Below, piece after piece: positions 2,989 through 20,083 of a stretch of DNA of 64,000 nucleotides. Under the pieces are notes generated by a model. That model did no database searches and was not told the origin of the DNA. It saw only the letters and a program-made list of their open reading frames with translations. The stretch covers positions 163,124 to 227,123 of the forward strand of contig JBAZYY010000001.1 of the NCBI GenBank assembly GCA_041659065.1, in the 5' to 3' direction. Each line of letters opens with the position of its first letter. The first letter of the stretch is position 1. The translations under genes and the position numbers were made by a program. This stretch comes from Parcubacteria group bacterium. Lineage in GTDB: Bacteria; Patescibacteriota; Minisyncoccia; Moranbacterales; UBA11712.

Positions 2989-4986
2989 TTATTTTCTCAC
3001 CTTCACCCCTAACTTCTTCTCAAGCGCATGGATAATTTTATTCACTACGGTATCAATTTCGCTTGAGGTCAGCGTTTTACCATTAGATCCTATTTCTATA
3101 CGAATAGCCAAACTATCTTTATATTTATCAAACAGAGTTATATTTTTTATGAGTTCTCCGCCAGTTTTTTTAATTTCTTTTGTGATATCCGCGTATTTAG
3201 TATTTTCATCCACAAACATTGAGATGTCCCGATTCACGGTTGGAAATTTGCTGATTGGATGGTAACTTTTTTCAAAAGCATCGCTTGTTTTCATAACTTC
3301 TACGACATCTAGCTCGAAACATACAAGCCGATCTTTTAAGTCATACTTTCGAAGTATATTAGGATTTAATTCAGCTATATAGCCAACTACTGTATTTTTT
3401 AATTTTATAACTGCTGTCCGCGTTGGATGAACAAAATTTCCCGCAACTTTCGGCTGTGCGAATTCAACGTCTGGCAAATTGAGGCATCGAAAAAGTTCTT
3501 CAAGTTTTCCCTTGAGATCGTAATATGGATTATTTTTTTGATTGCGATTCATCAAAGCGCCAGCCAATTTCGTTTTTTCCCCTTTTTTAGCGGAAAAAAT
3601 GTCGCCTATTTCAAATATGGAAAAATCATTGAAATATTTCAAGTTAAGCGTCGCATTCCGGACAATTCCCGGAATGAGCGTGGTTCTCAAATATTGCTGG
3701 TCCAGACTCAAAGGATTTGATACTTCAATATGATCCGACTCATCTAAATTAAAGCTGGCTACTTCATCTTTTCCGTAAAAAGAATAATTCATCACCTCTG
3801 AAAATCCAAGTCCCGTTAAAATATTCTTAAGCTTATTTTCAAAAATCCTTTTTTCGTTTCGTGGCGGAGTTTTGAGTTCAACGCAAAGTGCTTGCTCCTT
3901 AATATTTTCATATCCATAAATACGGCCGATTTCCTCGATGAGATCTTCCTGAGTCTTAAGATCGATTCGGCGGGTTGGAGTTTCGCAGTTCAGAAATTTT
4001 CCAGATACTTTTACGATTAAACCCAGATTTTCCAAAATACTTTTCATTTTTGAAACCGGAATATTTTCGCCAAGCAGATTATTTACGTAATTTGTGTTCA
4101 AATTTATTTTCCACGGGCGTATTATTTTCGCATAAACATCAGTTAATGCGATCACCTCGACATTTTTGCCACCTAATTTCTTTATCAATTCAATCGCGCG
4201 CACAACTCCGATTTCTGCCAGATTCGGGTCAATTTCGCGTTCAAAGCGGTGCGAAGATTCAGTGTTGATGTTGTGGCGCATTCTTGTTTTTCGGATACTC
4301 GGAGCGTCGAAATTGGCCGATTCAAGGATTATCGAAGCAGTCTTATTATTAATGGCCGAGCCAATGCCGCCCATCACGCCAGCCAGTGCTAGGGCTTTTT
4401 CCGAGTCAGCAATTACTAAATCATTTGCAGTGAGTTTATAAACTTTTTCATCTAATAACTTTATTTCTTCATTCTTTTTGGCTTTCCTGACTATGATATT
4501 TCCCGCAGTTCTTTCTAAATCGAAAGCGTGTAGTGGTTGCCCGGTTTCCAGCATCACATAATTTGTAATATCAACAATGTTATTAATTGGCTTAACTCCA
4601 CTAGCCAGCAGCCGCTGCTGCATCCATTTTGGCGAAGCACCGACTTTTATATTTTCCAAAGCCGTTCCAATATATCGCGGGCAAAGATGCCTTTCGTTTA
4701 CTTTAATATTTAACTTCTGACTAAAGCTTAGCTTTAGTCGCTGGCTATAATCTAGTTCTGGAGATAACTTCCGACCTTCAATCGCGCAGATTTCCCTTGC
4801 CATCCCGATATGCGAAAGGGCATCGTGTCCTCGATTTGGCAATATCGCAAATTCAAGTTGAGTTTCGGTCCCTTCTTTTTTACTATCTTCAAACTCAAAA
4901 GCACGCATGCTAATTAGCTGCGCCAGCTGTTCTGGCGTTTTTTTTGTTTTAGATAGCTCTTTTAACCAATTGTAGCTATATTTCAT
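2989..4986 (-). CDS. pheT: phenylalanine--tRNA ligase beta subunit
   Basis: 665 aa starting MKYSYNWLKEL (typical PheT N-terminus), with a B3/4 and B5 domain-like middle and a C-terminal anticodon-binding-like region. It lies upstream of valS and downstream of pheS. Confidence 0.85.
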   Translation of the reverse strand: MKYSYNWLKELSKTKKTPEQLAQLISMRAFEFEDSKKEGTETQLEFAILPNRGHDALSHIGMAREICAIEGRKLSPELDYSQRLKLSFSQKLNIKVNERHLCPRYIGTALENIKVGASPKWMQQRLLASGVKPINNIVDITNYVMLETGQPLHAFDLERTAGNIIVRKAKKNEEIKLLDEKVYKLTANDLVIADSEKALALAGVMGGIGSAINNKTASIILESANFDAPSIRKTRMRHNINTESSHRFEREIDPNLAEIGVVRAIELIKKLGGKNVEVIALTDVYAKIIRPWKINLNTNYVNNLLGENIPVSKMKSILENLGLIVKVSGKFLNCETPTRRIDLKTQEDLIEEIGRIYGYENIKEQALCVELKTPPRNEKRIFENKLKNILTGLGFSEVMNYSFYGKDEVASFNLDESDHIEVSNPLSLDQQYLRTTLIPGIVRNATLNLKYFNDFSIFEIGDIFSAKKGEKTKLAGALMNRNQKNNPYYDLKGKLEELFRCLNLPDVEFAQPKVAGNFVHPTRTAVIKLKNTVVGYIAELNPNILRKYDLKDRLVCFELDVVEVMKTSDAFEKSYHPISKFPTVNRDISMFVDENTKYADITKEIKKTGGELIKNITLFDKYKDSLAIRIEIGSNGKTLTSSEIDTVVNKIIHALEKKLGVKVRK

Positions 4987-5085: not shown

Positions 5086-6225
5086 CTAGAATTGCTTTAT
5101 AAACCTCAAATCTCCGCTCTCAAACCAACGAATGTCATCTATTTTATATTTCATCATCGCAAGCCTCTCGATCCCAAATCCCCAAGCAAATCCTTGAAAT
5201 TTATTTCTCGGGTACCCAGCGGACATAAAAACATTTTGATTGACCATTCCTGCCCCGCCTATCTCAAGCCATTTCCCATATCTGCACGAGGGACAGCCTT
5301 TTCCGGAACAAACCGTGCAGCTGATGTCGAATTCAAAGCTCGGCTCAGTAAAAGGAAAAAAGCTGGGTCTCAACCTGATATCAACGTCTTTTCCAAAAAA
5401 AGCGCTAAAAAACTCTTTGGCTATATGCTTGAAGTGGCCGATGTTGATATCTTTTCCCGTCACAAGAGCTTCAAATTGATGCAGTGTGTGCTCATGCGTC
5501 GCGTCCGTGGCTTCGTTTCGAAAGACTCTTCCCGGTACGATTACTCGAAAAGGCGGCTTATGCTTTTCCATATATCTCACCTGAACTGGCGATGTGTGAG
5601 TTCTGAGTACTAATTTCTCCTTATCCGACTTTACCCCTGCGCCAATCCCGCCGCCGTTTCTCCTCAAATTATTTTCAGATAGCGAAGCGGCTTCGCCTTC
5701 AGAGGGTATCTTCATTTGCATTTTATGGTTTGGATTGGTGATGGGGTGAATCCAAAAAGTATCTTGCATATCCCGCGCCGGGTGATCAGGCGGAAAGTTC
5801 AAAGCGGTAAAATTATACCAGTCAGTTTCCAGTTCCGGACCGCTTGTAATCTCAAAACCCATTGAAGAAAATATTTGCTCAATTTCCCTGTACACTATCG
5901 TGATAGAATTGAGACTTCCCAGCTCATTTTTTTCACCCGGGAGTGTGACATCAATTTTTTCTTTTTCCCAATCAATCTGGTTTTCAAGTTCTTTTTTGCG
6001 CTTATCAAGCCCATTGTCGATTAGTTGTCTCGCGCCATTTGCGAGCGGTCCTATTGATTTTCGCTCTTCGGAGTCAAGATCTCTTAATTTCTTCAGTATT
6101 TCCGTAAGCCTCCCTTTTCTTCCAAGATATTTGACTTTGACATCATAAAGCTGTTTCGCATCCTGTGATTCGGCGATTTCTTTCGCGCTTTCCGCTTCAA
6201 TTTGCTTAATATCAGCTTTATTCAT
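5086..6225 (-). CDS. pheS: phenylalanine--tRNA ligase alpha subunit
   Basis: 379 aa. Class II motifs are present: FRVIVPGRVFRNEATDATH, LRTHTSPVQVRYM and GFAWGFGIERLAMM. A ~35-aa insertion (IHPITNPNHKMQMKIPSEGEAASLSENNLRRNGGGIGAGVKSDKEK) sits between motifs 1 and 2. Confidence 0.85.
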   Translation of the reverse strand: MNKADIKQIEAESAKEIAESQDAKQLYDVKVKYLGRKGRLTEILKKLRDLDSEERKSIGPLANGARQLIDNGLDKRKKELENQIDWEKEKIDVTLPGEKNELGSLNSITIVYREIEQIFSSMGFEITSGPELETDWYNFTALNFPPDHPARDMQDTFWIHPITNPNHKMQMKIPSEGEAASLSENNLRRNGGGIGAGVKSDKEKLVLRTHTSPVQVRYMEKHKPPFRVIVPGRVFRNEATDATHEHTLHQFEALVTGKDINIGHFKHIAKEFFSAFFGKDVDIRLRPSFFPFTEPSFEFDISCTVCSGKGCPSCRYGKWLEIGGAGMVNQNVFMSAGYPRNKFQGFAWGFGIERLAMMKYKIDDIRWFESGDLRFIKQF

Positions 6226-6279
6226 ACCTTAAATTTATCTCAAAAAGGATAAAAAGTCCAATCGGCAGCCTGTCTGCCA

Positions 6280-7386
6280 TTAACGGATAAACGACGCCTT
6301 TCTTGACGTTTCCAGACATTTTTCGAGTTCTTTTTTGTTTAATATTTTACGCTCGTACAGGGCCCGGTACTCCCGAGCAAGTCCGGTGCGGCCGAGATAT
6401 GGCGCGTCAGTGTTGATCGTAAATTTTACTTCGTTTTTCAGAAAGGTCCGCAGGATCCAGTGCATTTCTTCCCAGCTTGCTACCGAACCGGTCATGACAT
6501 TGATAGTTGGACAAATTTCAAGCACGACATCATGTTTTTTTAACAGGTCCATTGCGTTTTTATCATAGGCCGTTCTTATGCCGTGACCAATCCTATCCGG
6601 TTTTATGGCTTCGACAACGCGCATTACTCTTTCTACGCTTGAGTCCTTGGTCTCGCCGGTATGGACCGTAATTCCCAATCCCTTTTCGCGAGCCAAAGAA
6701 AATAGCGCGACATATTTATTAAAATATGTCCCTTCCTCAAAATTCAAGTGGCTCGGATCAGCTATCTTGACTCCGACGTTTTTTCTGAAGTGCTGGCGAT
6801 AAGTCGCGTAATCCTTCTCTTTTCTAAAGGTAAATGCCTCCGGACCCGCGATATCTACGCCCACTACGCCTCTTTTTCTGTACGCAATGGCTTTTTTGAC
6901 AATGACTTCGTTATGCTTGAAAGACAAACGGCGATCAAGGCAAAAAATCAGGCCGGCCCTCACGCCATAATCAAACATTGCGCGCTCCATTCCATGGATA
7001 GCTGAATTAATAATGTGATCCATGTCGAGCTCTGACCCGCGGGTACGAAACATGGGGTTGAAACGGAGCTCGATTGTCGAAACATTAGCGGACCTATATT
7101 CTTTTGAAATCACGTTATATATCCCGCTTTCGATAGCCTTGGGGCTGCTTTGAATCCGGTCAGTCCATTCATAAACATTCAGGAGATCCTCAAAACTATC
7201 GATATCCCGGAGAAAGTTGCAGAAACTCCAGTAATCTCGCGCCGGAGGCTTAATGCCTTGTGATTGGGCAATTTCCCAAAGGATATGCGGACTCATTGCG
7301 CCGCCAACATGAATATGAAGATCGACTAGGTCTTCGCGGAGAATATTTTTGGAATATTTATCGAGTTGTCCTTTTGCGGGAGTCAT
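6280..7386 (-). CDS. adenosine/adenine deaminase family metallo-hydrolase
   Basis: 368 aa. Contains LHIHVGGA (HxH metal site), VHTGE, RIGHG and TINTDAP, matching the ADA-family HxHxDG / HAGE / SLNTDDP pattern. Confidence 0.7.
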   Translation of the reverse strand: MTPAKGQLDKYSKNILREDLVDLHIHVGGAMSPHILWEIAQSQGIKPPARDYWSFCNFLRDIDSFEDLLNVYEWTDRIQSSPKAIESGIYNVISKEYRSANVSTIELRFNPMFRTRGSELDMDHIINSAIHGMERAMFDYGVRAGLIFCLDRRLSFKHNEVIVKKAIAYRKRGVVGVDIAGPEAFTFRKEKDYATYRQHFRKNVGVKIADPSHLNFEEGTYFNKYVALFSLAREKGLGITVHTGETKDSSVERVMRVVEAIKPDRIGHGIRTAYDKNAMDLLKKHDVVLEICPTINVMTGSVASWEEMHWILRTFLKNEVKFTINTDAPYLGRTGLAREYRALYERKILNKKELEKCLETSRKASFIR

Positions 7387-9918: not shown

Positions 9919-10000
9919 TTTGTTTTTGCGTTCGTGCTTTTATATTAGCATAATCCAGCTAAACATAAAAACCGCATCTTAGGAAGCTGTTTTATTTTGA
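9900..10000. repeat. left copy of a diverged ~100-bp direct repeat bounding the accessory island (includes the first codons and upstream region of the ClpB-like gene)
   Basis: gccaaaaaaagaaattcattttgtttttgcg...ttagcataa...gctgtttt is repeated, with indels, at 18975-19080. Confidence 0.55.
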
Positions 10001-10169
10001 AAATTTTCTATTTCCCAACATCCGATGCTGAGAAGCGGCTAATTTTTACTTATAAATGGCTTCCAACTTTTTCGTCTGCTCCGAAAGCGCATCAAGTTTA
10101 GCGAATATTGATTTTTGCTTTGATACGGGTTTTCCTAGTATTGAATATTGGGAGGGGTTAATTACCCTG

Positions 10170-10218
10170 ATTCCTAAAGTTCGAAATTAGGATTGGTTTT
10201 CCTAACATTAAATGTTAG
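10170..10218. repeat. hairpin repeat pair (H1-like ttcctaaagttcgaaattagga plus H2 cctaacattaaatgttag)
   Basis: Inverted repeats are visible directly. Both families recur at eight intergenic sites in 10.1-14.1 kb. Confidence 0.6.
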
Positions 10219-10273
10219 AAACGGTTAGAGGGGCCAGAGGTGAATGCCCAAAAATCAAAACTCCTTTTATGGT

Positions 10274-11449
10274 TTATCTTTTCTCTAAAATATCATTAAG
10301 CGGTTTATATATATACCAGTACCCATCATGACGAGGCGGTGCATTTTTTAATACTGACAAGCCCTTCCTCGCATGATCTTTCATTATATCAATATTAGTT
10401 TTATTTATGCGCAACCCTAGTAATTCAAGCGACCGTCCAAGTCTATCGAGCTCATAATTGAAATCAGATTCTGCAGTTCTCGAGTGTAAAAGTTTTTCAA
10501 GATTACCTATTATTTCCTCAAATCTTTTTTCCCAATAAGTAGTTTCTTTTTCATAAAATATATTAATAAACTCATCCCTTAAATTTGTAATGATTTTTTC
10601 TCGCATTGCAAACTGTTCAACACTAAGGGGCACATCAGATTTGACATTACTATACTTGCCAAAGTCAAGGTTCTCAATCCGATTCTTTCCATGAAATATC
10701 GCATATGCGATGTGATTCGCAATAATATGCCTATCAAAATTATTTCCACCGATAATTGAGAACGCAACATTAAACTTTTTATCCCTATCTCCTTTTTTAA
10801 CATTTTCTAATGCATAAAATATTCCTTCGAATGATTTGTTTATTGTTGCTCTAGAACTAATGTACTCTGTAACATATAAAAAACCATTTTCGATTTTATT
10901 TTCTATTAACAAATTACTCACCACACTTTTCACGCCAGAACTGTCAAGGTTGTGATGCTTATGATCATGACCAATATCGAGTGAAACAAGTTCTGCTAAT
11001 TTTTCATTTTTTGTTTCATAGATTTTATTTATCGCCTTATGTATTATTTCCGCAGGCAATCGACCACTGCTATCTTCTGAAAAAACTACATCATAAGCAT
11101 GCGCATTAACTGCATCACGCATTTGTGGTACCATTTTTTCAAATGCACTCATCATTATATCACTGAGAAAATTAATCTCTGCATTTGGTGTTTTCCAATT
11201 TTCATGAAAGATTCTCGCCTCGGTTTCAGCCAATTCAATGGCAGTAACCTTGGGAAGGTTGAAAATTTTAAACAGAATACCCCTTTTCTTGTTTTTTAAT
11301 TTTGCCAATTCTTCCCATTCAGACCAAGATTCTAAAACTTCACGTCTTATAAAACCATTTTCAAGATTAACGAAATTAGCACGCTCGTCGCTTGGCAAAT
11401 CCTCAACTTTTTTATATTCAGCATTAAATGGATTAAATTTTTCTGACAT
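10274..11449 (-). CDS. hypothetical protein (island cassette gene, 391 aa)
   Basis: Long ORF whose ATG lies 28 nt downstream of the X promoter module. No family recognised. Contains a His-rich patch (SLDIGHDHKHHNLD). Confidence 0.55.
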   Translation of the reverse strand: MSEKFNPFNAEYKKVEDLPSDERANFVNLENGFIRREVLESWSEWEELAKLKNKKRGILFKIFNLPKVTAIELAETEARIFHENWKTPNAEINFLSDIMMSAFEKMVPQMRDAVNAHAYDVVFSEDSSGRLPAEIIHKAINKIYETKNEKLAELVSLDIGHDHKHHNLDSSGVKSVVSNLLIENKIENGFLYVTEYISSRATINKSFEGIFYALENVKKGDRDKKFNVAFSIIGGNNFDRHIIANHIAYAIFHGKNRIENLDFGKYSNVKSDVPLSVEQFAMREKIITNLRDEFINIFYEKETTYWEKRFEEIIGNLEKLLHSRTAESDFNYELDRLGRSLELLGLRINKTNIDIMKDHARKGLSVLKNAPPRHDGYWYIYKPLNDILEKR

Positions 11450-11476
11450 ACCCTCGTATTTTCGATTAATTATTTT

Positions 11477-11509
11477 CCCCTGCCGGAATTACGTAATCAG
11501 TTACGTAAC
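11477..11509 (-). promoter_or_regulatory. conserved promoter/operator module X: tandem TTACGTAA palindromes then CCGGC(A/G)GGGG, ~25-28 nt upstream of the cassette start codon
   Basis: The minus strand reads TTACGTAACTGATTACGTAATTCCGGCAGGGGAAAATAATTA. This fits a -35-like TTACGT, a 17-18 nt GC-rich spacer and a -10-like A/T hexamer, leaving a very short leader. Confidence 0.5.
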
Positions 11510-11517
11510 AAATTTTA

Positions 11518-11547
11518 TTCCTAAAGTCGAACTTTAGGAACGGTCAG
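11518..11547. repeat. H1 hairpin repeat ttcctaaagtcgaactttaggaa followed by cggtcag
   Basis: Perfect 10-bp arms (ttcctaaagt / actttaggaa) around cga. Identical copies lie at 13166-13188 and 13349-13371. Confidence 0.65.
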
Positions 11548-11944
11548 TTTTTCTTTCGAGAGACGGCGGATCGAGCGGGCGAAAGCTTGCTGATTGATTT
11601 TTCGCCATTCAGCCTTGATCAACCTTAGATTCCTATAGTACTGCCGGGGATCCCGGGAAAACCCCAAAGCGACGCCTCCCATAAACGCTAGCAATATTTT
11701 CTTTTTCACCGACCCTATCCTGTACATAAATATATTTTAGCATCAATATACGGCCGTGTCTAAAAACTGAATTGGAGCTGGAGAGTATAAATGTGGGTAT
11801 AAATTATAAATATTGAGCAAGGAAATATTCAACAGAATATAGCTTTAAGATACGGCCGTGGGTAAATGCTGGGTTGGGGAAAAAAGATGAAGGAGGTCGA
11901 ATGAAGTGCGAGCGAGAAAGTATTGCTGCTATTTTTCAATCCAT

Positions 11945-11980
11945 CCCCCGCCGGAATTACGTAATTGGTTACGTAATTAT
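11945..11980 (-). promoter_or_regulatory. X module copy (cccccgccggaattacgtaattggttacgtaattat)
   Basis: Same tandem TTACGTAA motif. No ORF starts at the usual 25-28 nt, so this cassette is probably degenerate. Confidence 0.4.
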
Positions 11981-11985
11981 CTTTA

Positions 11986-12010
11986 CCCTAACATTCAATG
12001 TTGAGTTGGG
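11986..12010. repeat. H2 hairpin repeat (ccctaacattcaatgttgagttggg) immediately 3' of the stop codon at 12011
   Basis: The arms aacatt / aatgtt form a palindrome. The same family occurs at 10201-10218 and 13556-13656. Confidence 0.55.
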
Positions 12011-12562
12011 TTATTTTTTTAGCTTCTTTTTTTCTTCAACTTTCGGCCAGCTGGCGCCCCGAAGCTTAATTTGATCCTGTCTTTTCGCAACCCATTGTCT
12101 GTGCGCGTCAACATTATTCTCTTCCAGACTTGGATGCCTCCAAACTTGTTCTGGAGGAGGTATTTGCCCTTTTTTTATCAGCACATTTTCTTGATATTTC
12201 GCTTGTTGCTTTTTTCTTCTGCCTCCAATACTGAAATATCTTTTGGTTTCTTTTCTCCTTTTTGCTCGCTTGGCTATTCCCTGAAGGATTATCTCCTCGG
12301 GATTTTCAATATTGGATTCACTATCAACATATCTAAAAGTATGAGGATTATCTTCCGGCTCAGCAACCTTTCTAATATTTGGTTTCCCGCTGTCTTTTTT
12401 GAATTGCCGTTTTTTTACAGGAACCGTATCGCCTATTTTTTCCCGAACGCCCAGAGGCCCTCCAGATTCGACTCGCAAATCATCTTCAGTTTGGTGCGCC
12501 GATTCTCCGAAATTATTTTCCTTTAATTGATCCACGAGATCCGGTCTTTCGAGTTTTGGCAT
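12011..12562 (-). CDS. hypothetical highly basic protein (183 aa, K/R/E-rich, likely nucleic-acid-binding)
   Basis: The ORF's ATG lies 24 nt downstream of the X module at 12586-12621. Composition is low-complexity basic. Confidence 0.55.
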   Translation of the reverse strand: MPKLERPDLVDQLKENNFGESAHQTEDDLRVESGGPLGVREKIGDTVPVKKRQFKKDSGKPNIRKVAEPEDNPHTFRYVDSESNIENPEEIILQGIAKRAKRRKETKRYFSIGGRRKKQQAKYQENVLIKKGQIPPPEQVWRHPSLEENNVDAHRQWVAKRQDQIKLRGASWPKVEEKKKLKK

Positions 12563-12585
12563 ATATTATTCTTTATTTATTATCT

Positions 12586-12621
12586 CCCCCGCCGGAATTA
12601 CGCAATTAGTTGCGTAATTAT
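12586..12621 (-). promoter_or_regulatory. X module copy (cccccgccggaattacgcaattagttgcgtaattat)
   Basis: Minus strand reads TTGCGT, then 17 nt AATTCCGGCGGGGGAGA, then TAATAA, then 14 nt, then ATG. This is the best sigma70-like arrangement of the four copies. Confidence 0.5.
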
Positions 12622-12624
12622 TCT

Positions 12625-12645
12625 CGCTAAGGTTCAACCTTAGCG
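12625..12645. repeat. hairpin cgctaaggttcaaccttagcg (perfect 10-bp arms) overlapping the stop codon of the upstream cassette gene
   Basis: Revcomp of cgctaaggtt is aaccttagcg. The TAA of ORF 12640..13155 lies inside the 3' arm. Confidence 0.6.
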
Positions 12646-13155
12646 AAGCTCTAGTTTCTCAATTATTTTTTTAAATGCCCCATATCCTCTGTATGACTCA
12701 CCTGATATATATTCTCCACTTTCATCTTTATATTTTTTTATTTCGCCATTTTCTTTAATTTCCCTCAACTCTGAAATAATTTCCCAAAGCAAATTAACAA
12801 AATCTTTACCCAGATTCCGGTTATTAATGGCAAATTCAATAAAAACTTCGTCGCTGATTACCATTTTAAATGTTTCGAAGGATATTCCACTTATTCTTTC
12901 CTTATCAATTAATCTTTTATTATTATTAAACTCTAATAACAATGCCTTCTTGAGAATTTTATATTTATTTCCCCTTCTATAATTCTCTGCTTTTTCATTT
13001 AACTTAAATGCAACAAAAACACCAAGAAAAGTAGCGATTAAAACAAAAATGAATTGAGTAATATCTATTATTGTAATCAAGTTTAACTGATATAACAAAA
13101 TAACCAATAACAACACTAATAATATAAGGTATATAATAATTTTTTTGTTGCTCAT
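12640..13155 (-). CDS. hypothetical membrane protein (two N-terminal TM helices plus a soluble domain, 171 aa)
   Basis: Hydrophobic N-terminus IIIYLILLVLLLVILLY...FIFVLIATFLGVFVAF. No family recognised. Confidence 0.55.
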   Translation of the reverse strand: MSNKKIIIYLILLVLLLVILLYQLNLITIIDITQFIFVLIATFLGVFVAFKLNEKAENYRRGNKYKILKKALLLEFNNNKRLIDKERISGISFETFKMVISDEVFIEFAINNRNLGKDFVNLLWEIISELREIKENGEIKKYKDESGEYISGESYRGYGAFKKIIEKLELR

Positions 13156-13165
13156 AAATTTTTGA

Positions 13166-13188
13166 TTCCTAAAGTCGAACTTTAGGAA
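13166..13188. repeat. H1 hairpin repeat (ttcctaaagtcgaactttaggaa)
   Basis: Exact copy of the 11518-11540 element, 8 nt upstream of the start codon at 13155. Confidence 0.65.
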
Positions 13189-13279
13189 CGGTTAAGAGAA
13201 ATTGCAGTCTTGTCAAAAGCAAAGACTGGATTAGTATCCATTTCCTGTGGCGCTTTTTTGTCTTCGCGATCAAATGCCA
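13169..13279 (-). CDS. possible 36-aa basic peptide MAFDREAKKRHRKWILIQSLLLTRLQFLLTVPKVRL (cassette-positioned small ORF)
   Basis: The ATG lies 28 nt after the X module at 13308-13343, like the other cassette genes. The last 8 codons and the stop are supplied by the H1 hairpin. Confidence 0.3.
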   Translation of the reverse strand, partial: WHLIAKTKKRHRKWILIQSLLLTRLQFLLTVPKVRL

Positions 13280-13307
13280 TAAGATTAGAGATTTTTCTAA
13301 ATTATTA

Positions 13308-13343
13308 TCCCCCGCCGGAAATACGTATTTAAATACGTATTTA
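13308..13343 (-). promoter_or_regulatory. X module variant (cccccgccggaaatacgtatttaaatacgtatttat)
   Basis: Tandem ATACGTAT palindromes replace TTACGTAA. The CCGGCGGGGG and A/T-rich -10 region are conserved. Confidence 0.45.
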
Positions 13344-13348
13344 TTTTT

Positions 13349-13371
13349 ATTCCTAAAGTTCGACTTTAGGA
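13349..13371. repeat. H1 hairpin repeat (ttcctaaagttcgactttaggaa)
   Basis: Third H1 copy, followed by cggttaac. Confidence 0.6.
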
Positions 13372-13555
13372 ACGGTTAACTATTTTTTTTTGGCTTTGGC
13401 TTTCAGTTTTTTGAGGTGCGTGGCCGAATCACGGCAGGTGCAGTTTTTCGCGTGGCCACCGTGCCACTTTATTTTCTCCTCAAGAGTTGCATTTTTGGGC
13501 ATCTTGTTCTTCAAATGCCAGGTTTTGTTGATTTTCATCTTGTTTTATCGCTATT

Positions 13556-13656
13556 CTAACATTGAATGTGGGGTCGGGTTACCCTTGGACGGAAGTTTTG
13601 ACGAAAGCTCGGCTTTCGTCAGGTTTACCCCAACATTGAATGTTGGGTTGGGTTAT
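13556..13656. repeat. composite H2 element (two ctaacattgaatgtgggg-type palindromes flanking the hairpin gacgaaagctcggctttcgtc), a MITE-like insertion
   Basis: ctaacattgaatgtgggg ... gacgaaagc-tcg-gctttcgtc ... ccccaacattgaatgttgggttggg. The element supplies the last 22 codons and the stop of the truncated ATPase ORF. Confidence 0.5.
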
Positions 13657-13944
13657 TTCGATATTTTTATAACCGCTTGGGTCCCATTTATTATTTTTAA
13701 AAGCATAATTTTTACCATCTGTCATGATTTCAATACTCGGATTGTTATTTTGCCCAAGAGTTGATCTTTCTAATATATAAGTAGGATCGTTCCTCTCTAG
13801 AGATCTAAAGATTGCTGATAATGTAGTCTTTCCGCGACCATTCTCGCCAAATAGAACCGACATTTTTTTCAATTTCGTATCTCCTAGAGATTCATATTTT
13901 TCAAATCTTCCGACATGGAAGATTTTTATTACTTTTTCAATCAT
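13579..13944 (-). pseudogene. N-terminal fragment (~100 aa) of an ABC/SMC-type defence-associated ATPase (AAA_15/AAA_21-like), truncated by the H2 repeat element
   Basis: IFHVGRFEKYESL...MSVLFGENGRGKTTLSAIFRSL is a RecF/OLD/PrrC-type Walker A N-terminus; such proteins are >350 aa. Here the frame runs into repeat-derived sequence and stops after 121 aa. Confidence 0.55.
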
Positions 13945-14049
13945 AATAAATTATTTTCCTCCTTAATCCTAAATTTTCCAGATTTGACTAATTTTATACT
14001 ATTATAATTTTTCGGTTCCTTAAATTCGAATTGCCAAGTGGAATATTTT

Positions 14050-14072
14050 ATTCCTTAAGTTTAACTTTAAGA
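14050..14072. repeat. imperfect H1-like hairpin (ttccttaagtttaactttaagaa then cggttaatg)
   Basis: Degenerate copy of H1 at the 3' end of the DpnI-like operon. Confidence 0.4.
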
Positions 14073-14101
14073 ACGGTTAATGATTCTTCGTTAACATCGA
14101 C

Positions 14102-14257
14102 CTATTCCTCTTCGCGATCTTCTGATAAATCCTCAAGAAACCACTCTCTACCGCAAATACAGCTTCCCTGATATGAATACTGATATTGACCACCAATAAG
14201 TTTTATTGCAAGTTTATTTCCACATTTGCACTTTATCAACATCTGCTGATTATCCAT
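14102..14257 (-). CDS. possible 51-aa zinc-ribbon protein (MDNQQMLIKCKCGNKLAIKLIGGQYQYSYQGSCICGREWFLEDLSEDREEE)
   Basis: Two CxCG pairs. The ATG lies 5 nt after the stop of the 153-aa gene. Too short for the ORF track. Confidence 0.35.
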   Translation of the reverse strand: MDNQQMLIKCKCGNKLAIKLIGGQYQYSYQGSCICGREWFLEDLSEDREEE

Positions 14258-16203: not shown

Positions 16204-16404
16204 TTTTTACTCCGATAATCGCGGACGGTCATAGAAGGGATTACTTATTTATCCTACATAATTGCCTTTTATAAAGCAAATATCATCAGTTATCCACAAT
16301 TTAGTTGAAATATTTTTCGAATTATGCAAGTATTATAAGTACCAAGACCTGTATTCCGAACTATCACCGGATGGTGGTGTGGCTGGGACAACCAGTCTAG
16401 GAAC

Positions 16405-16440
16405 GTGGTCGGAGATAGCCCTTCGGGGCTGTTTTTTGTT
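16405..16440 (+). terminator. plus-strand rho-independent terminator-like hairpin (agccc-ttcg-gggct then gttttttg)
   Basis: A GC stem followed by a T-run on the plus strand only. It lies between divergent/convergent minus-strand genes. Confidence 0.4.
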
Positions 16441-17065
16441 ATTTGAAAGGCCATTCATCTTCAATATGCTTCTTTATTATACTTTTGTATACGGCGCGAT
16501 CATTTTTTGTATTGTCATAGCTTCTTCGAATGCTTCCCGCAGTCATATCAGCCATTTGTATGAGGACATTGCTTTTTGAATTTACAAGACGGCAATTTTT
16601 GATGATTTTCGTTTGTTTGGAATTAAGTTGCTTTCTCAAATACGTGATAAAACTTTTTCGAAACACTCTGTCACCGCTTCCGTCAATTTTTATCGATGCA
16701 TTGAAAATCGTGGAATTGTTATATTTGAGAAGTGTCTTGATTATATAGCTGTAAAAAGAATCTTTGCTGTTTTTCAATTCGTCGCTTCTGATTATCTTCT
16801 TATCGACGACGAGAGACCTGATTCTAAACTCGAATTTGTTCACTGTTTGGAGAAATTTTTCTCTCACATCTTTTCGGGATTTGTTGAATTTGAATTCAAC
16901 CTTATCCGAAAACTTCAAGTTTCTTCTCAATTCTTTTATCGCAACTGCGGCTTTTTCCGCTTCCAGATTATCATCAAAAATAACTGCACTTATCACAAAA
17001 AAGTCAGTTGAGCCCCTTTCGAATTTGAAGCCGGCGTCGCCGGAGTCATCAATGAAAACCAGCAT
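16439..17065 (-). CDS. DUF3800 family protein
   Basis: N-terminal MLVFIDDSGD and a later IQMADMTAGSIRRSY motif are characteristic of DUF3800. Confidence 0.65.
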   Translation of the reverse strand: MLVFIDDSGDAGFKFERGSTDFFVISAVIFDDNLEAEKAAVAIKELRRNLKFSDKVEFKFNKSRKDVREKFLQTVNKFEFRIRSLVVDKKIIRSDELKNSKDSFYSYIIKTLLKYNNSTIFNASIKIDGSGDRVFRKSFITYLRKQLNSKQTKIIKNCRLVNSKSNVLIQMADMTAGSIRRSYDNTKNDRAVYKSIIKKHIEDEWPFK

Positions 17066-17611
17066 AATTTATATTTTGAATGATTCGATACCTATTTAAT
17101 GAGGCAAATCTTTTCACTTTTTCCAATCCTTATATGCCTTCTAACCATTTATTGATTCATTCTCATTATTTTCCCACATCCAGGCAATCCCAATAATGAT
17201 CAACGCCAAAACTGTCTCAATGGTCGCGATGGCTATGTAGTGAGGATATGATGATACTGTATATATCATTATAGATCATATTGATAACCAGGACTGTCCA
17301 AAGCCCGGATAAAACCTCTTTCGGATTGCTTTTGATGATGTTTTTCATTTATTCATCCTTAATTTTATTTTTTTCAATCCTTGATATCTTGCGGATGTTT
17401 TGGTCTTTCATTTAGTTGCTACTTACCTTCCGCCCGAGGCGGACACGTGCTACATAACAATTCGCGATTAAGGTGACTGTTTCGCTATTAAATAAAGGTT
17501 TTCTGTGCTTTTATGTTATCACTAAACTCCCAATTTCTCAAATTTTTTGCAAAAAACCCCGCTGTTTCCAGCGAGGCATTCGCGAATGTGTGAATTTACA
17601 ACGAAGCTCGA

Positions 17612-17655
17612 AGGCACCCCGCCAATGGCGGTGGCAGTCTTAGTTAAATTTGTGG
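17612..17655. repeat. copy of the 44-nt tRNA-locus repeat gcaccccgccaatggcggtggcagtcttagttaaatttgtgg
   Basis: Identical to 19226-19262, which lies directly 3' of the intact tRNA-Tyr. Confidence 0.6.
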
Positions 17656-17789
17656 ACAGTTTGGGACAAAGTTGGAACATACCTCGCTTTGCATAGTTAT
17701 TCTACGTAATTTGAGAGAATTTGCCAATTTGCACTATTTTGCTTTATGTAATATTATTTTTTTAGGGGGATTATCAGTAATTTAAATAA

Positions 17790-19080: not shown

Positions 19081-19154
19081 ATTACTTAAGTTGTTTGTGG
19101 TACCTTTTGGTTAAAATCCGAACTTTTTTTGACGAAAATCCGGATTTTGAAAAT

Positions 19155-19204
19155 TGGCGGGTAGGGAGGGATTCGAACCCCCGTAGCCCGAAGGCGCCAG
19201 ATTT
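19155..19204 (-). pseudogene. tRNA-Tyr 3' fragment (anticodon-loop position ~36 to the 3' end, with encoded CCA)
   Basis: Minus strand reads AAATCTGGCGCCTTCGGGCTACGGGGGTTCGAATCCCTCCCTACCCGCCA. It is identical to the 3' part of the intact tRNA-Tyr apart from the discriminator base. Confidence 0.7.
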
Positions 19205-19258
19205 ATGTCGCCTCTTGCGGCACCCCGCCAATGGCGGTGGCAGTCTTAGTTAAATTTG

Positions 19259-19341
19259 TGGGTAGGGAGGGATTCGAACCCCCGTAGCCCGAAGGCGCCA
19301 GATTTACAGTCTGGTACAATTGGCCGCTCTGTCACCTACCC
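19259..19341 (-). tRNA. tRNA-Tyr (anticodon GTA), long variable arm, no encoded CCA
   Basis: The tRNA reads GGGTAGGTGACAGAGCGGCCAATTGTACCAGACTGTAAATCTGGCGCCTTCGGGCTACGGGGGTTCGAATCCCTCCCTACCCA. Acceptor arms are GGGTAGG / CCTACCC. Anticodon stem CCAGA / TCTGG carries loop CTGTAAA. Confidence 0.85.
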
Positions 19342-19342
19342 G

Positions 19343-19594
19343 TTACTTTATTCTTTTAATCAATTTTTTAAACGCGTCACCACCTTTGTATGATTTTATC
19401 CGTAATTCTCTTTTGTAAGCATCATTCTTAGTATTATATTCTTCCGTATAAATAATTTTCCAGGGACGAGCACTCTTAGTCGATCTTACTAATCCTCGGT
19501 TATGTCTTTCCAGTCTATTATTTAAGTCCTGCGTACGGCCAATATAATATTTATTAGATTTTTCTATAGATTCTAAAATATATACTCTATACAT
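19343..19594 (-). CDS. GIY-YIG nuclease family protein (UPF0213/YhbQ-like, 83 aa), copy 1
   Basis: YRVYILES...YYIGRTQDLNNRLERHN...PWKIIYTEEY...KRELRIKS matches the small GIY-YIG family signature. The stop codon lies 1 nt from the tRNA-Tyr 5' end. Confidence 0.75.
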   Translation of the reverse strand: MYRVYILESIEKSNKYYIGRTQDLNNRLERHNRGLVRSTKSARPWKIIYTEEYNTKNDAYKRELRIKSYKGGDAFKKLIKRIK

Positions 19595-19693
19595 AACATA
19601 ATAGCATGAACATTCTGATTTATGCCGCCCCTAGCGGCACCCCGCCAACGGCGGTGGCAGTCTGGTACAATTGGCCGCTCTGTCACCTACCCG

Positions 19694-19945
19694 TTACTTT
19701 ATTCTTTTAATCAATTTTTTAAACGCGTCACCACCTTTGTATGATTTTATCCGTAATTCTCTTTTGTAAGCATCATTCTTAGTATTATATTCTTCCGTAT
19801 AAATAATTTTCCAGGGACGAGCACTCTTAGTCGATCTTACTAATCCTCGGTTATGTCTTTCCAGTCTATTATTTAAGTCCTGCGTACGGCCAATATAATA
19901 TTTATTAGATTTTTCTATAGATTCTAAAATATATACTCTATACAT
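19694..19945 (-). CDS. GIY-YIG nuclease family protein, copy 2 (identical)
   Basis: The ORF has 100% identical translation to copy 1. Confidence 0.7.
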   Translation of the reverse strand: MYRVYILESIEKSNKYYIGRTQDLNNRLERHNRGLVRSTKSARPWKIIYTEEYNTKNDAYKRELRIKSYKGGDAFKKLIKRIK

Positions 19946-20083
19946 AACATAATAGCATGAACATTCTGATTTATGCCGCCCCTAGCGGCACCCCGCCAAC
20001 GGCGGTGGCAGTCTGGTACAATTGGCCGCTCTGTCACCTACCCGTTTTAAAATAGTACTATTCGCTCCGCGTCATCAACCGGG

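Follow-up and report, generated by a model that had tools for sequence, protein, structure and literature searches.

A palindrome-pair and GC-box module upstream of unrelated genes in a Candidate Phyla Radiation lineage: a candidate repressor-controlled region

Several bacteria carry short hairpin-forming intergenic modules, such as REP/BIME in E. coli, BOX in the pneumococcus, and Correia and NIME/dRS3 elements in Neisseria, which occur in varying order, are restricted to their lineages and lie near variable genes, sometimes supplying promoters or RNA-processing sites. In integrons the attC site is an imperfect hairpin of 57-141 nucleotides (nt), in which R'' (RYYYAAC) pairs with R' (GTTRRRY), and the cassettes are mostly promoterless. 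Promoter propagation in prokaryotes has been described in the form of putative mobile promoters (PMC3488235), and the yefM-yoeB operator contains paired TGTACA hexamers that lie 6 bp apart, or 12 bp from centre to centre, over the promoter and within some tens of bp of the start codon (PMC1802561). Here we describe a 35-nt intergenic module found in a 64-kb stretch of DNA (hereafter the window; contig JBAZYY010000001.1) from a Parcubacteria group bacterium, whose genes for PheS, ClpB, EF-Ts and ribosomal proteins are those of a bacterial genome of the Candidate Phyla Radiation (CPR) type. To our knowledge, almost nothing is known about transcriptional control in CPR bacteria, which cannot grow alone.

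The module is built from separable parts: a pair of TACGTA palindromes, an invariant GC box and a -10-like AATAAT. Our preferred explanation, which we credit with about an even chance of being right, is that it represents a promoter-proximal, repressor-controlled region, copies of which have come to stand before unrelated genes within one Parcubacteria/Moranbacteria-type (CPR) lineage. The two palindromes would then serve as operator for a small DNA-binding protein that acts as a dimer, with two dimers seated side by side, the binder being perhaps a MazE/AbrB-like, antitoxin-type protein of 58-60 amino acids (aa). The invariant, asymmetric box, (A)ATTCCGGCGGGGGA, could be the site of a second factor, a contact for RNA polymerase or the transcript start, and it would stay with its gene over evolutionary time. 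The -10-like AATAAT, 0-9 nt past the box, would be followed by a short leader without a Shine-Dalgarno (SD) sequence. Finally, a second repeat, a hairpin that we call the H element, would, with the module, make up the boundary from one cassette-like gene to the next.

Four copies of the module are present in the window, all on the minus strand (Table 1), as had been claimed for a motif upstream of minus-strand genes in an earlier note made from the sequence alone. The 20-mer TACGTAATTCCGGCGGGGGA, which spans the junction of palindrome and box, retrieves exactly these four when up to three mismatches are allowed (11476-11495, 11944-11963, 12585-12604 and 13308-13327), with 0.00 occurrences expected in shuffled sequence, and a repeat finder recovers the same copies as one family (D4). 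TTACGTAA by itself occurs five times in the window, where 0.61 are expected. The layout is AATTACGTAA-NNNN-TTACGTAATT, with the last TT fused into CCGGCGGGGGA; the gap between the 8-mers, given as 3 nt in the earlier note, is actually 4 nt, and their starts are spaced by 12. It had also been seen correctly that three copies lie close upstream of start codons and that one lacks an open reading frame (ORF): the start codons at 13279, 12562 and 11449 come 28, 23 and 27 nt after the end of the G run, and copy 3 is followed by neither an ORF nor a -10-like AATAAT, leading instead into the native upstream region of a truncated PaaX-like gene. The description as a pair of perfect 8-bp palindromes fits copies 1, 3 and 4. 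The 8-mers of copy 2 (TTACGCAA/TTGCGTAA) are mutually reverse-complementary, neither being a palindrome, and this copy is the one clear exception to palindromy within the 8-mer. A further, partial site proposed at 17697-17710 (TACGTAAT), before a plus-strand gene, comes down to a lone TACGTA at 17703, which is at chance level; the window holds ten TACGTA in all, against 4.8 expected, and six of them are inside modules.

Among the matches listed, the module family occurs only in contigs of Moranbacteria/Parcubacteria type, with none in viral contigs. In a scan of species-representative genomes, the matches listed include the full module in two Moranbacteria-type metagenome-assembled genomes (MAGs), L026 and L075 (L numbers denote the related loci), again with AACCGTTCC... 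before it and TAAT after it, and the remaining matches of the 17-mer searched for are chance matches. The long module pattern was found in 15 metagenome contigs. Viral contigs gave no exact match, on which a phage origin was rejected. The 391-aa cassette protein behind copy 4 is an ORFan with one distant relative, and the gene of that relative is without the module. A search of the literature on TTACGTAA operators and on CPR promoter motifs found nothing relevant.

The GC box, of 13 nt, is the most conserved part of the module. Listed as CCGGC[AG]GG[GA] in AT-rich context, box-bearing instances amount to 32 distinct ones, which comprise the palindrome pair with the box (type A) and the box without the pair (type B). 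In type B, (C)TCGAA precedes the box and there is usually a C run 9-13 nt upstream that is able to pair with the G run. Conversely, the pair occurs without the box before msrA (in L123, where it is joined to an H element of the H2 class described below), before trmD (L026) and before three small MazE-like genes, and the combinations seen include H + pair + box, C run + box, pair + H2, box + H2 and tandem H. The earlier note took the motif for a dedicated regulon of the cassettes in a genomic island. This is not supported, as the module is not island-specific: in relatives it precedes genes for TspO and a glycosyltransferase, and the pair alone precedes msrA and trmD. In L123, within 6 kb after the MazE-like genes, five consecutive genes (188 aa, TspO, 119 aa, 106 aa and msrA) each have the pair and/or the box. 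The module precedes TspO in L123 and L088, and no module is found before the TspO genes of other CPR phyla (80-91% protein identity, unrelated neighbourhoods). Thus, the module is a property of the lineage rather than of the gene, and TspO was rejected as a module carrier. The TspO protein itself (134 aa; L123 8366-8770 and loci L134-L155) is 80-91% identical across Moran-, Komeili-, Kerfeld- and Taylorbacteria and Paceibacterota MAGs, its gene often adjoins GGCGCGCC-like motifs amid unrelated gene neighbourhoods, and this pattern points to recent horizontal spread within the CPR.

The relation of the module to what lies behind it is strong, and not uniform. A co-directional ORF of at least 30 codons lies within 90 nt of 27 of the 32 box instances, in a script count that includes some ORFs judged spurious. 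In 13 cases the ATG follows the G run at 21-28 nt, where the distances cluster, while the extremes are 8 and 10 nt, both in L088, and in about two thirds of cases the module points at the downstream gene at the distance of a short leader. That the element belongs to the gene downstream is most strongly supported by a family of 119-aa genes, represented by five gene copies in four genomes with 49-78% protein identity. Upstream of this family CCGGCGGGG is invariant and the leader, AATWA-TCAAAAAT-ATG, is also conserved, the sequence upstream of the box is unalignable, and the palindrome pair is present in full, in half or not at all. A general G-rich signal 21-26 nt before all starts was considered and rejected, since there is only a weak rise in G that is explained by neighbouring coding sequence.

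Weighing against our preferred explanation, about a third of the copies have, by our judgement, no real gene behind them. Some of these orphans are followed by an H hairpin (L119_411, L121) and some by other sequence (window copy 3, L127_737, L127_1297, L131), and some face a convergent gene, RNA or terminator (L026, L075_3982, L125_1450, L127_875, L130). The orphan in L026, from Candidatus Moranbacteria GW2011_GWC2_40_12, faces an abiF RNA motif (RF03085, 45.3 bits; L026 3124-3159, minus strand). It is conceivable that the module is a structural or selfish intergenic repeat of the REP/BIME or BOX kind that lacks gene-specific regulation and is at most an insulator. Its opposite strand would then offer a C-rich box followed by a hairpin and then by a run rich in T, resembling an intrinsic terminator directed against antisense or convergent transcription. 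The orphans speak for such a repeat, as do the five copies that abut the 3' ends of convergent genes or RNAs, the opposite-strand hairpins followed by T-rich runs (for example TTATTTTTATT in copy 1 and ATTTTTTATT in L088_5170), and the modular composition and variable spacing. However, the strong relation of orientation and distance to downstream start codons and the conservation of box and leader upstream of orthologues do not, and the stems are AT-rich and weak (about -10 kcal/mol), no gene in the window runs toward the modules from the other side, and canonical GC-rich terminators exist in these genomes (L130, L075). We consider a repeat of this kind quite unlikely. As to sense-strand termination, what comes after the hairpins is A-rich sequence or the GC box, and only the H1 element at 11517-11541 passes an intrinsic terminator scan.

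The symmetry of the palindrome pair bears on whether it is read as DNA or as RNA. Among 20 distinct type A modules, TACGTA-N6-TACGTA, with hexamers 12 bp apart from centre to centre, occurs in 17. A model in which each 8-mer is a palindrome of its own holds for 95.6% of cells, and the variable outer W positions co-vary inside each 8-mer in 18/20 and 19/20 sequences, whereas pairing between the arms holds at these positions in 15/20 and 18/20. In a hybrid module in L075 (TTACGTAA + ATACGTAT), both palindromes are kept and two inter-arm pairs are lost. Since an 8-bp palindrome cannot fold on itself, the kept symmetry of the 8-mers argues for duplex DNA read by two symmetric dimers. The geometry of a dimeric-repressor operator, already proposed in the earlier note, is thus supported by 8-mer palindromy, by co-variation within the 8-mers and by a spacing identical to that of yefM-yoeB.

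It is possible, albeit unlikely in our view, that the module acts at the RNA level instead. It would then be transcribed within a 5' leader or an intercistronic region, where the pair would fold as a 10-bp hairpin and the G run (GGGGGA, SD-like) would be free or sequestered by the upstream C run, setting mRNA stability, processing or translation in the manner of a 5' stabiliser hairpin with a decoy ribosome-binding site. A model with a single 24-nt dyad does leave 93% of cells paired in the 20 type A modules, with both sides changed at three positions and one G-U pair, and copy 2, which has lost its 8-mer palindromes yet keeps inter-arm complementarity, favours a hairpin or a single long dyad and so counts against an operator made of two palindromes. 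The pairing of C run and G run in type B includes U-G pairs that are workable on the sense strand only, the box in L088 sits at SD distance from the ATG, 8-10 nt, and the genes run head to tail with gaps of 60-110 nt, compatible with polycistronic transcripts. Yet RNA folding leaves unexplained why, at the variable positions, symmetry within the 8-mers surpasses pairing between the arms, and the L075 hybrid breaks the hairpin while keeping the palindromes. At its usual 21-28 nt, the G run is too distant from the ATG to act as an SD sequence, and one copy (L075_3226) lies between divergent genes. At the gathering threshold, Rfam 15 has no match at the module in the window and nine related loci, nor does any appear in 10000-14200 at E up to 5, by which known RNA families are ruled out as its identity. 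The H hairpins, for their part, show no consistent strand preference in folding energy, which fails to favour RNA and leaves no decision between a DNA and an RNA role for them.

The pair lies 13-22 nt upstream of the -10-like AATAAT of the predicted promoter and 35-50 nt upstream of the ATG. A search for pairs without the box led to two paralogous genes in L123 (58 and 60 aa; 1299-1475 and 3655-3837) and to a homologue in L026 (670-846) that has an in-frame stop, and in all three the pair is 10-16 nt upstream of the ATG. These are the small MazE-like genes mentioned above; the proteins KKR43963.1 and KKR43966.1 are hypothetical proteins of Moranbacteria in public records. One of the L123 genes is followed by a Fic/DOC gene and the other by genes for a DNA methyltransferase and a MutH-like nuclease. 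Autoregulation usually shows itself in a site that lies before the gene encoding a small DNA-binding protein, and given that the pair directly precedes these genes, the MazE/AbrB-like protein of 58-60 aa is the best candidate for the binder of the TACGTA pair. The factor that the earlier note left unnamed thereby gains a candidate, albeit one about which several points call for caution. The match to Pfam MazE_antitoxin (SpoVT/AbrB fold) is borderline (E = 2.5e-5; 24.6 bits against a cut-off of 24.7, with 20 bits for the paralogue), no PDB sequence matches the protein, and its structure model is of low confidence and uninformative (predicted local distance difference test score, pLDDT, 56). Moreover, the 64-kb window encodes no homologue, and the three associations of pair and gene are not independent, being among paralogues and orthologues.

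Whether the module contains a promoter is a related question. The earlier note saw a sigma-70-like promoter of fixed geometry, with a -35 hexamer inside the palindromes and the GC-rich stretch as its 17-nt spacer. In the window the spacing fits such a promoter: in the three gene-linked copies the GC box is followed after 0-3 nt by GATAAT or AATAAT (after 0-9 nt in most relatives), and spacers of 16, 15 and 16 nt follow ATACGT, TTGCGT and TTACGT. The AATAAT lies 8-23 nt before the ATG, and if it is a -10 hexamer, the leaders would be about 1-16 nt long. Neither a good -35 match nor a constant spacing is established, and here again the evidence weighs against a promoter as part of our preferred explanation. 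The -35 hexamers match TTGACA at just 1-3 of 6 positions, a consensus promoter scan flags one of the four window copies without enrichment over shuffled sequence, and in gene-linked type A modules of relatives, by our own count, the TWCGT hexamer is separated from AATAAT by 16 nt in 6/10 and by 19-22 nt in 4/10. In L088, with the box 8-10 nt from the ATG, a -10 hexamer would not fit in between. The stretch is indeed GC-rich, but it is not a mere spacer, for the box occurs without palindromes and, in L088, close to the ATG.

Canonical TTGACA-17-TATAAT promoters and the leaderless arrangement occur in the same genomes, indicating that the primary sigma factor is ordinary and that the module marks a special class of upstream region. 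By eye, none of the promoters of ECF (extracytoplasmic function), sigma-54, sigma-28 or sigma-B factors or of single-subunit RNA polymerases fits both sequence and spacing. From these comparisons we conclude that the module probably abuts or overlaps a weak promoter, which is compatible with repression at variable distance. The leaders lack an SD sequence, as the earlier note remarked, although this is not distinctive: an SD-like tetramer 4-20 nt upstream is present in only 10 of the 58 window ORFs of at least 100 aa, and an SD-less leader was accordingly rejected as a special trait of module genes. Several housekeeping genes have GG-N1-5-AATAAT 10-20 nt before the ATG.

The H elements constitute a second repeat family, unnoticed in the earlier note, in which a TAACC lead is followed by a hairpin with a stem of 8-11 bp. 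They share the intergenic gaps with the modules, and eleven of them lie between 10128 and 14088 (Table 1). Their stems are TTCCTAAAGT/ACTTTAGGAA in H1, CCAACATT/AATGTTGG in H2 and CGCTAAGGT/ACCTTAGCG in the compensated variant H3, which differs from H1 through compensatory changes. An H element is usually found 4-8 nt upstream of a module and closes the preceding gene, its hairpin at the 3' end of the ORF providing stop codons in several frames. With hairpins at the ends of ORFs and modules before genes, the array thus reads as module, gene and hairpin, repeated. Of the PaaX-like gene (11545-11727), residues 1-61 of 185 are left, ending exactly at the left edge of an H1 element at 11545, and a gene of the AAA_13 / PDC-S06 type (ORF 13579-13944) is cut after about 96 codons by an H2 element at 13655.

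Table 1. Module copies and H elements of the array, with coordinates in the window
Feature	Coordinates	Strand	Description
H1 variant	14045-14088	-	TTAACCGTTCTTAAAGTTAAACTTAAGGAA; upstream edge of array
Two H2 elements	13549-13655	-	13623-13655 and 13549-13581; the first truncates the AAA_13 / PDC-S06-type ATPase gene
H1	13344-13377	-	TTAACCG-TTCCTAAAGT-CGA-ACTTTAGGAA; 3' end of 52-aa ORF, 7 nt upstream of copy 1
Module copy 1	13308-13342	-	ATACGTAT-TTAA-ATACGTAT; dyad 13319-13342
Copy 1 parts		-	GC box TTCCGGCGGGGGA 13308-13320; -10-like GATAATAAT 13301-13309; 32-codon ORF, ATG 13279
H1	13160-13193	-	Ends 32-codon ORF; no module after it
H3	12623-12648	-	CTTCGCTAAGGT-TGA-ACCTTAGCGAG; overlaps stop of 171-aa ORF, just upstream of copy 2
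Module copy 2	12585-12619	-	TTACGCAA-CTAA-TTGCGTAA; dyad 12596-12619
Copy 2 parts		-	GC box 12585-12597; GATAAT 12579-12584; 183-aa ORF, ATG 12562
H2	11981-12013	-	TAACCCAACTCAACATTGAATGTTAGGG; TAA is the stop of the 183-aa ORF; just upstream of copy 3
Module copy 3, orphan	11944-11978	-	TTACGTAA-CCAA-TTACGTAA; GC box 11944-11956
H1	11512-11545	-	Left edge is the truncation point of the PaaX-like gene; just upstream of copy 4
Module copy 4	11476-11510	-	TTACGTAA-CTGA-TTACGTAA; GC box variant TTCCGGCAGGGGA 11476-11488
Copy 4 parts		-	AATAAT 11469-11474; 391-aa ORFan, ATG 11449
Three tandem H elements	10128-10227	-	H2, H1-like, H2; close the array

It is tempting to view H element and module as the boundary sites of a lineage-specific cassette system that acts by recombination, similar in function to integron attC arrays or to the neisserial intergenic mosaic elements, with cassettes being swapped at these sites and the promoter-like features being secondary. 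The array of co-oriented, short ORFan genes, each bounded by repeats, would be explained in this way, and so would the two genes whose truncation point coincides with the left edge of an H element, the empty units in which a module is followed by an H element without a gene (L119_411, L121), and the setting in a decaying defence island beside tRNA genes. The parts are shuffled, as in the pair joined to H2 before msrA in L123 and in nested or tandem H elements (L075, L127 and window 10128-10227), and the same module and gene are found after different H elements and neighbours (L126 versus L129, L118 versus L123). However, no recombinase domain is present among the 29 window proteins scanned, around the island and elsewhere. 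Nor is there an attC signature, since the TAAC end has no GTTRRRY partner and the hairpins measure about 30 nt rather than at least 57 nt, and an integron attC is ruled out by sequence, by size and by the lack of an integrase among these proteins. Terminal inverted repeats, flanking duplications and an inverted GC box were not seen, all copies within a locus being in direct orientation, and a MITE (miniature inverted-repeat transposable element) or other element derived from an insertion sequence was ruled out on the absence of terminal inverted repeats and target-site duplication. The GC box also keeps its place upstream of one orthologous gene, stably conserved across five loci, and we found no pair of closely related genomes that differ in the presence of a cassette at a junction. 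A remnant of a tRNA 3' end or att site was rejected as well, the box being unlike the tRNA-Tyr and tRNA-Thr of the window. Taken together, recombination as the primary role of the module seems decidedly improbable.

A bolder version, which we think very unlikely, would join both ideas, with H element and module serving as the boundary sites of a CPR platform for the capture and expression of gene cassettes, integron-like but without an IntI-type integrase. If such a platform existed, each junction would supply a three-frame stop, a 3' hairpin and a repressor-controlled promoter, and captured genes (TspO, ORFans, defence genes) would be insulated and placed under one MazE/AbrB-like regulator.

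The stretch that contains the modules, low in GC and situated between clpB and two tRNA genes, also holds a DpnI-like nuclease, a DUF3800 protein with a DUF3800-IX RNA and the truncated AAA_13 / PDC-S06 ATPase, and these surroundings look like a decaying defence island. The DUF3800-IX RNA (RF02968, 50.1 bits; 16346-16414, plus strand) sits beside the DUF3800 gene (16439-17065, minus strand), which also matches the candidate defence family PDC-M04A. Right after the last hairpin of the array, at 10045-10127 on the minus strand, an open frame ending ...KQKSIFAKLDALSEQTKKLEAIYK* resembles by eye the C-terminal coiled-coil of HsdS, the S subunit of type I restriction systems. Together with the truncated AAA_13 gene, it suggests an older restriction/anticodon-nuclease locus of which part was replaced by the array. 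The truncated PaaX-like gene is preceded by ACGGCCGT palindromes at 11729-11775 and 11831-11877, which recur around its full-length homologue in L088 (about 5900-6650) and are probably the regulator's own operator. The same upstream region has strong sigma-70-like hexamers, and a leaderless mRNA is suggested by the position of TAAAAT, 6 nt before the ATG.

Other repeats are found nearby. The tRNA-Tyr gene (19258-19341, minus strand) sits amid repeats (19151-20040, also 17613-17666) in which the 5' half of the tRNA is repeated. This region includes a 300-nt sequence in two exact copies (19307-19606 and 19658-19957), both of which contain an 83-aa GIY-YIG ORF, and a 54-nt GC-hairpin repeat (GGCACCCCGCCAAYGGCGGTGGCAGTCT...) that occurs four times; the whole resembles the result of repeated insertion of a GIY-YIG homing element at the anticodon region. 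A conserved hairpin motif, GTCCGCC-N3-GGCGGAAGGTAAGTA, is present at 17420-17444 (minus strand) in the window and at L162 1244-1268, L163 750-774 and 1448-1472, and L164 16-40. In the related contigs it lies 27-50 nt upstream of GC-box variants, and it may be a further member of the same intergenic mosaic.

The module provides a short and sharply defined cis element of the CPR that is conserved before orthologues and copied onto unrelated genes, and for which a candidate binder can be named. Both the element and its candidate binder are open to in vitro work that needs no cultivation. If the pair is indeed an operator, a reduced genome would put newly acquired genes under one antitoxin-like regulator by means of a 35-nt cassette, and if the module is instead a junction, gene cassettes would be put together here in a new way. 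Whichever holds, some partner presumably recognises the invariant TTCCGGCGGGGGA box.

How does the module relate to the systems from which we set out? With integron cassette arrays the window array shares co-oriented, short ORFs of unknown function, hairpin repeats that end shortly before the next start, and some units without a gene. The H element starts with YTAAC but, unlike attC, has no GTTRRRY partner, its stems are of 8-11 bp with a 3-nt loop in about 30 nt, and no adjacent integrase is found among the proteins scanned; unlike those of integrons, the cassettes here appear to bring or to receive their own control region. Compared by description, module and H element resemble REP/BIME, BOX and NIME in being short intergenic pieces in variable order that are restricted to a lineage. 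They are not known to share sequence with these families. They also differ in that no associated RAYT-like transposase is seen and that the genome-wide copy number appears low, with four module copies in 64 kb, all inside 1.9 kb, and the module is tied much more tightly to start codons than REP or BOX.

Closer counterparts may be found among promoters and operators. Like the putative mobile promoters (PMC3488235), the module gives near-identical upstream regions before non-homologous genes, within a genome and in relatives, whereas its unit is of only 35 nt, is modular, contains an operator-like dyad and is usually coupled to the 3' hairpin of the preceding gene; its promoter activity is a prediction. 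Like the operators of yefM-yoeB and axe-txe, it has two palindromes with a 6-bp core at the same spacing, within tens of bp of a start codon, and in L123 one such pair directly precedes a small antitoxin-like gene that is followed by a Fic/DOC gene. In contrast to yefM-yoeB, the core is TACGTA rather than TGTACA, the candidate binder is MazE/AbrB-like rather than Phd/YefM, binding is predicted, and the pair, rather than staying within its own operon, recurs before many unrelated genes and is joined to an invariant GC box. The module appears to stand outside every described family tested (Rfam, attC, MITE), and as judged from its sequence it would work like an antitoxin-type operator, while its distribution is like that of a putative mobile promoter.

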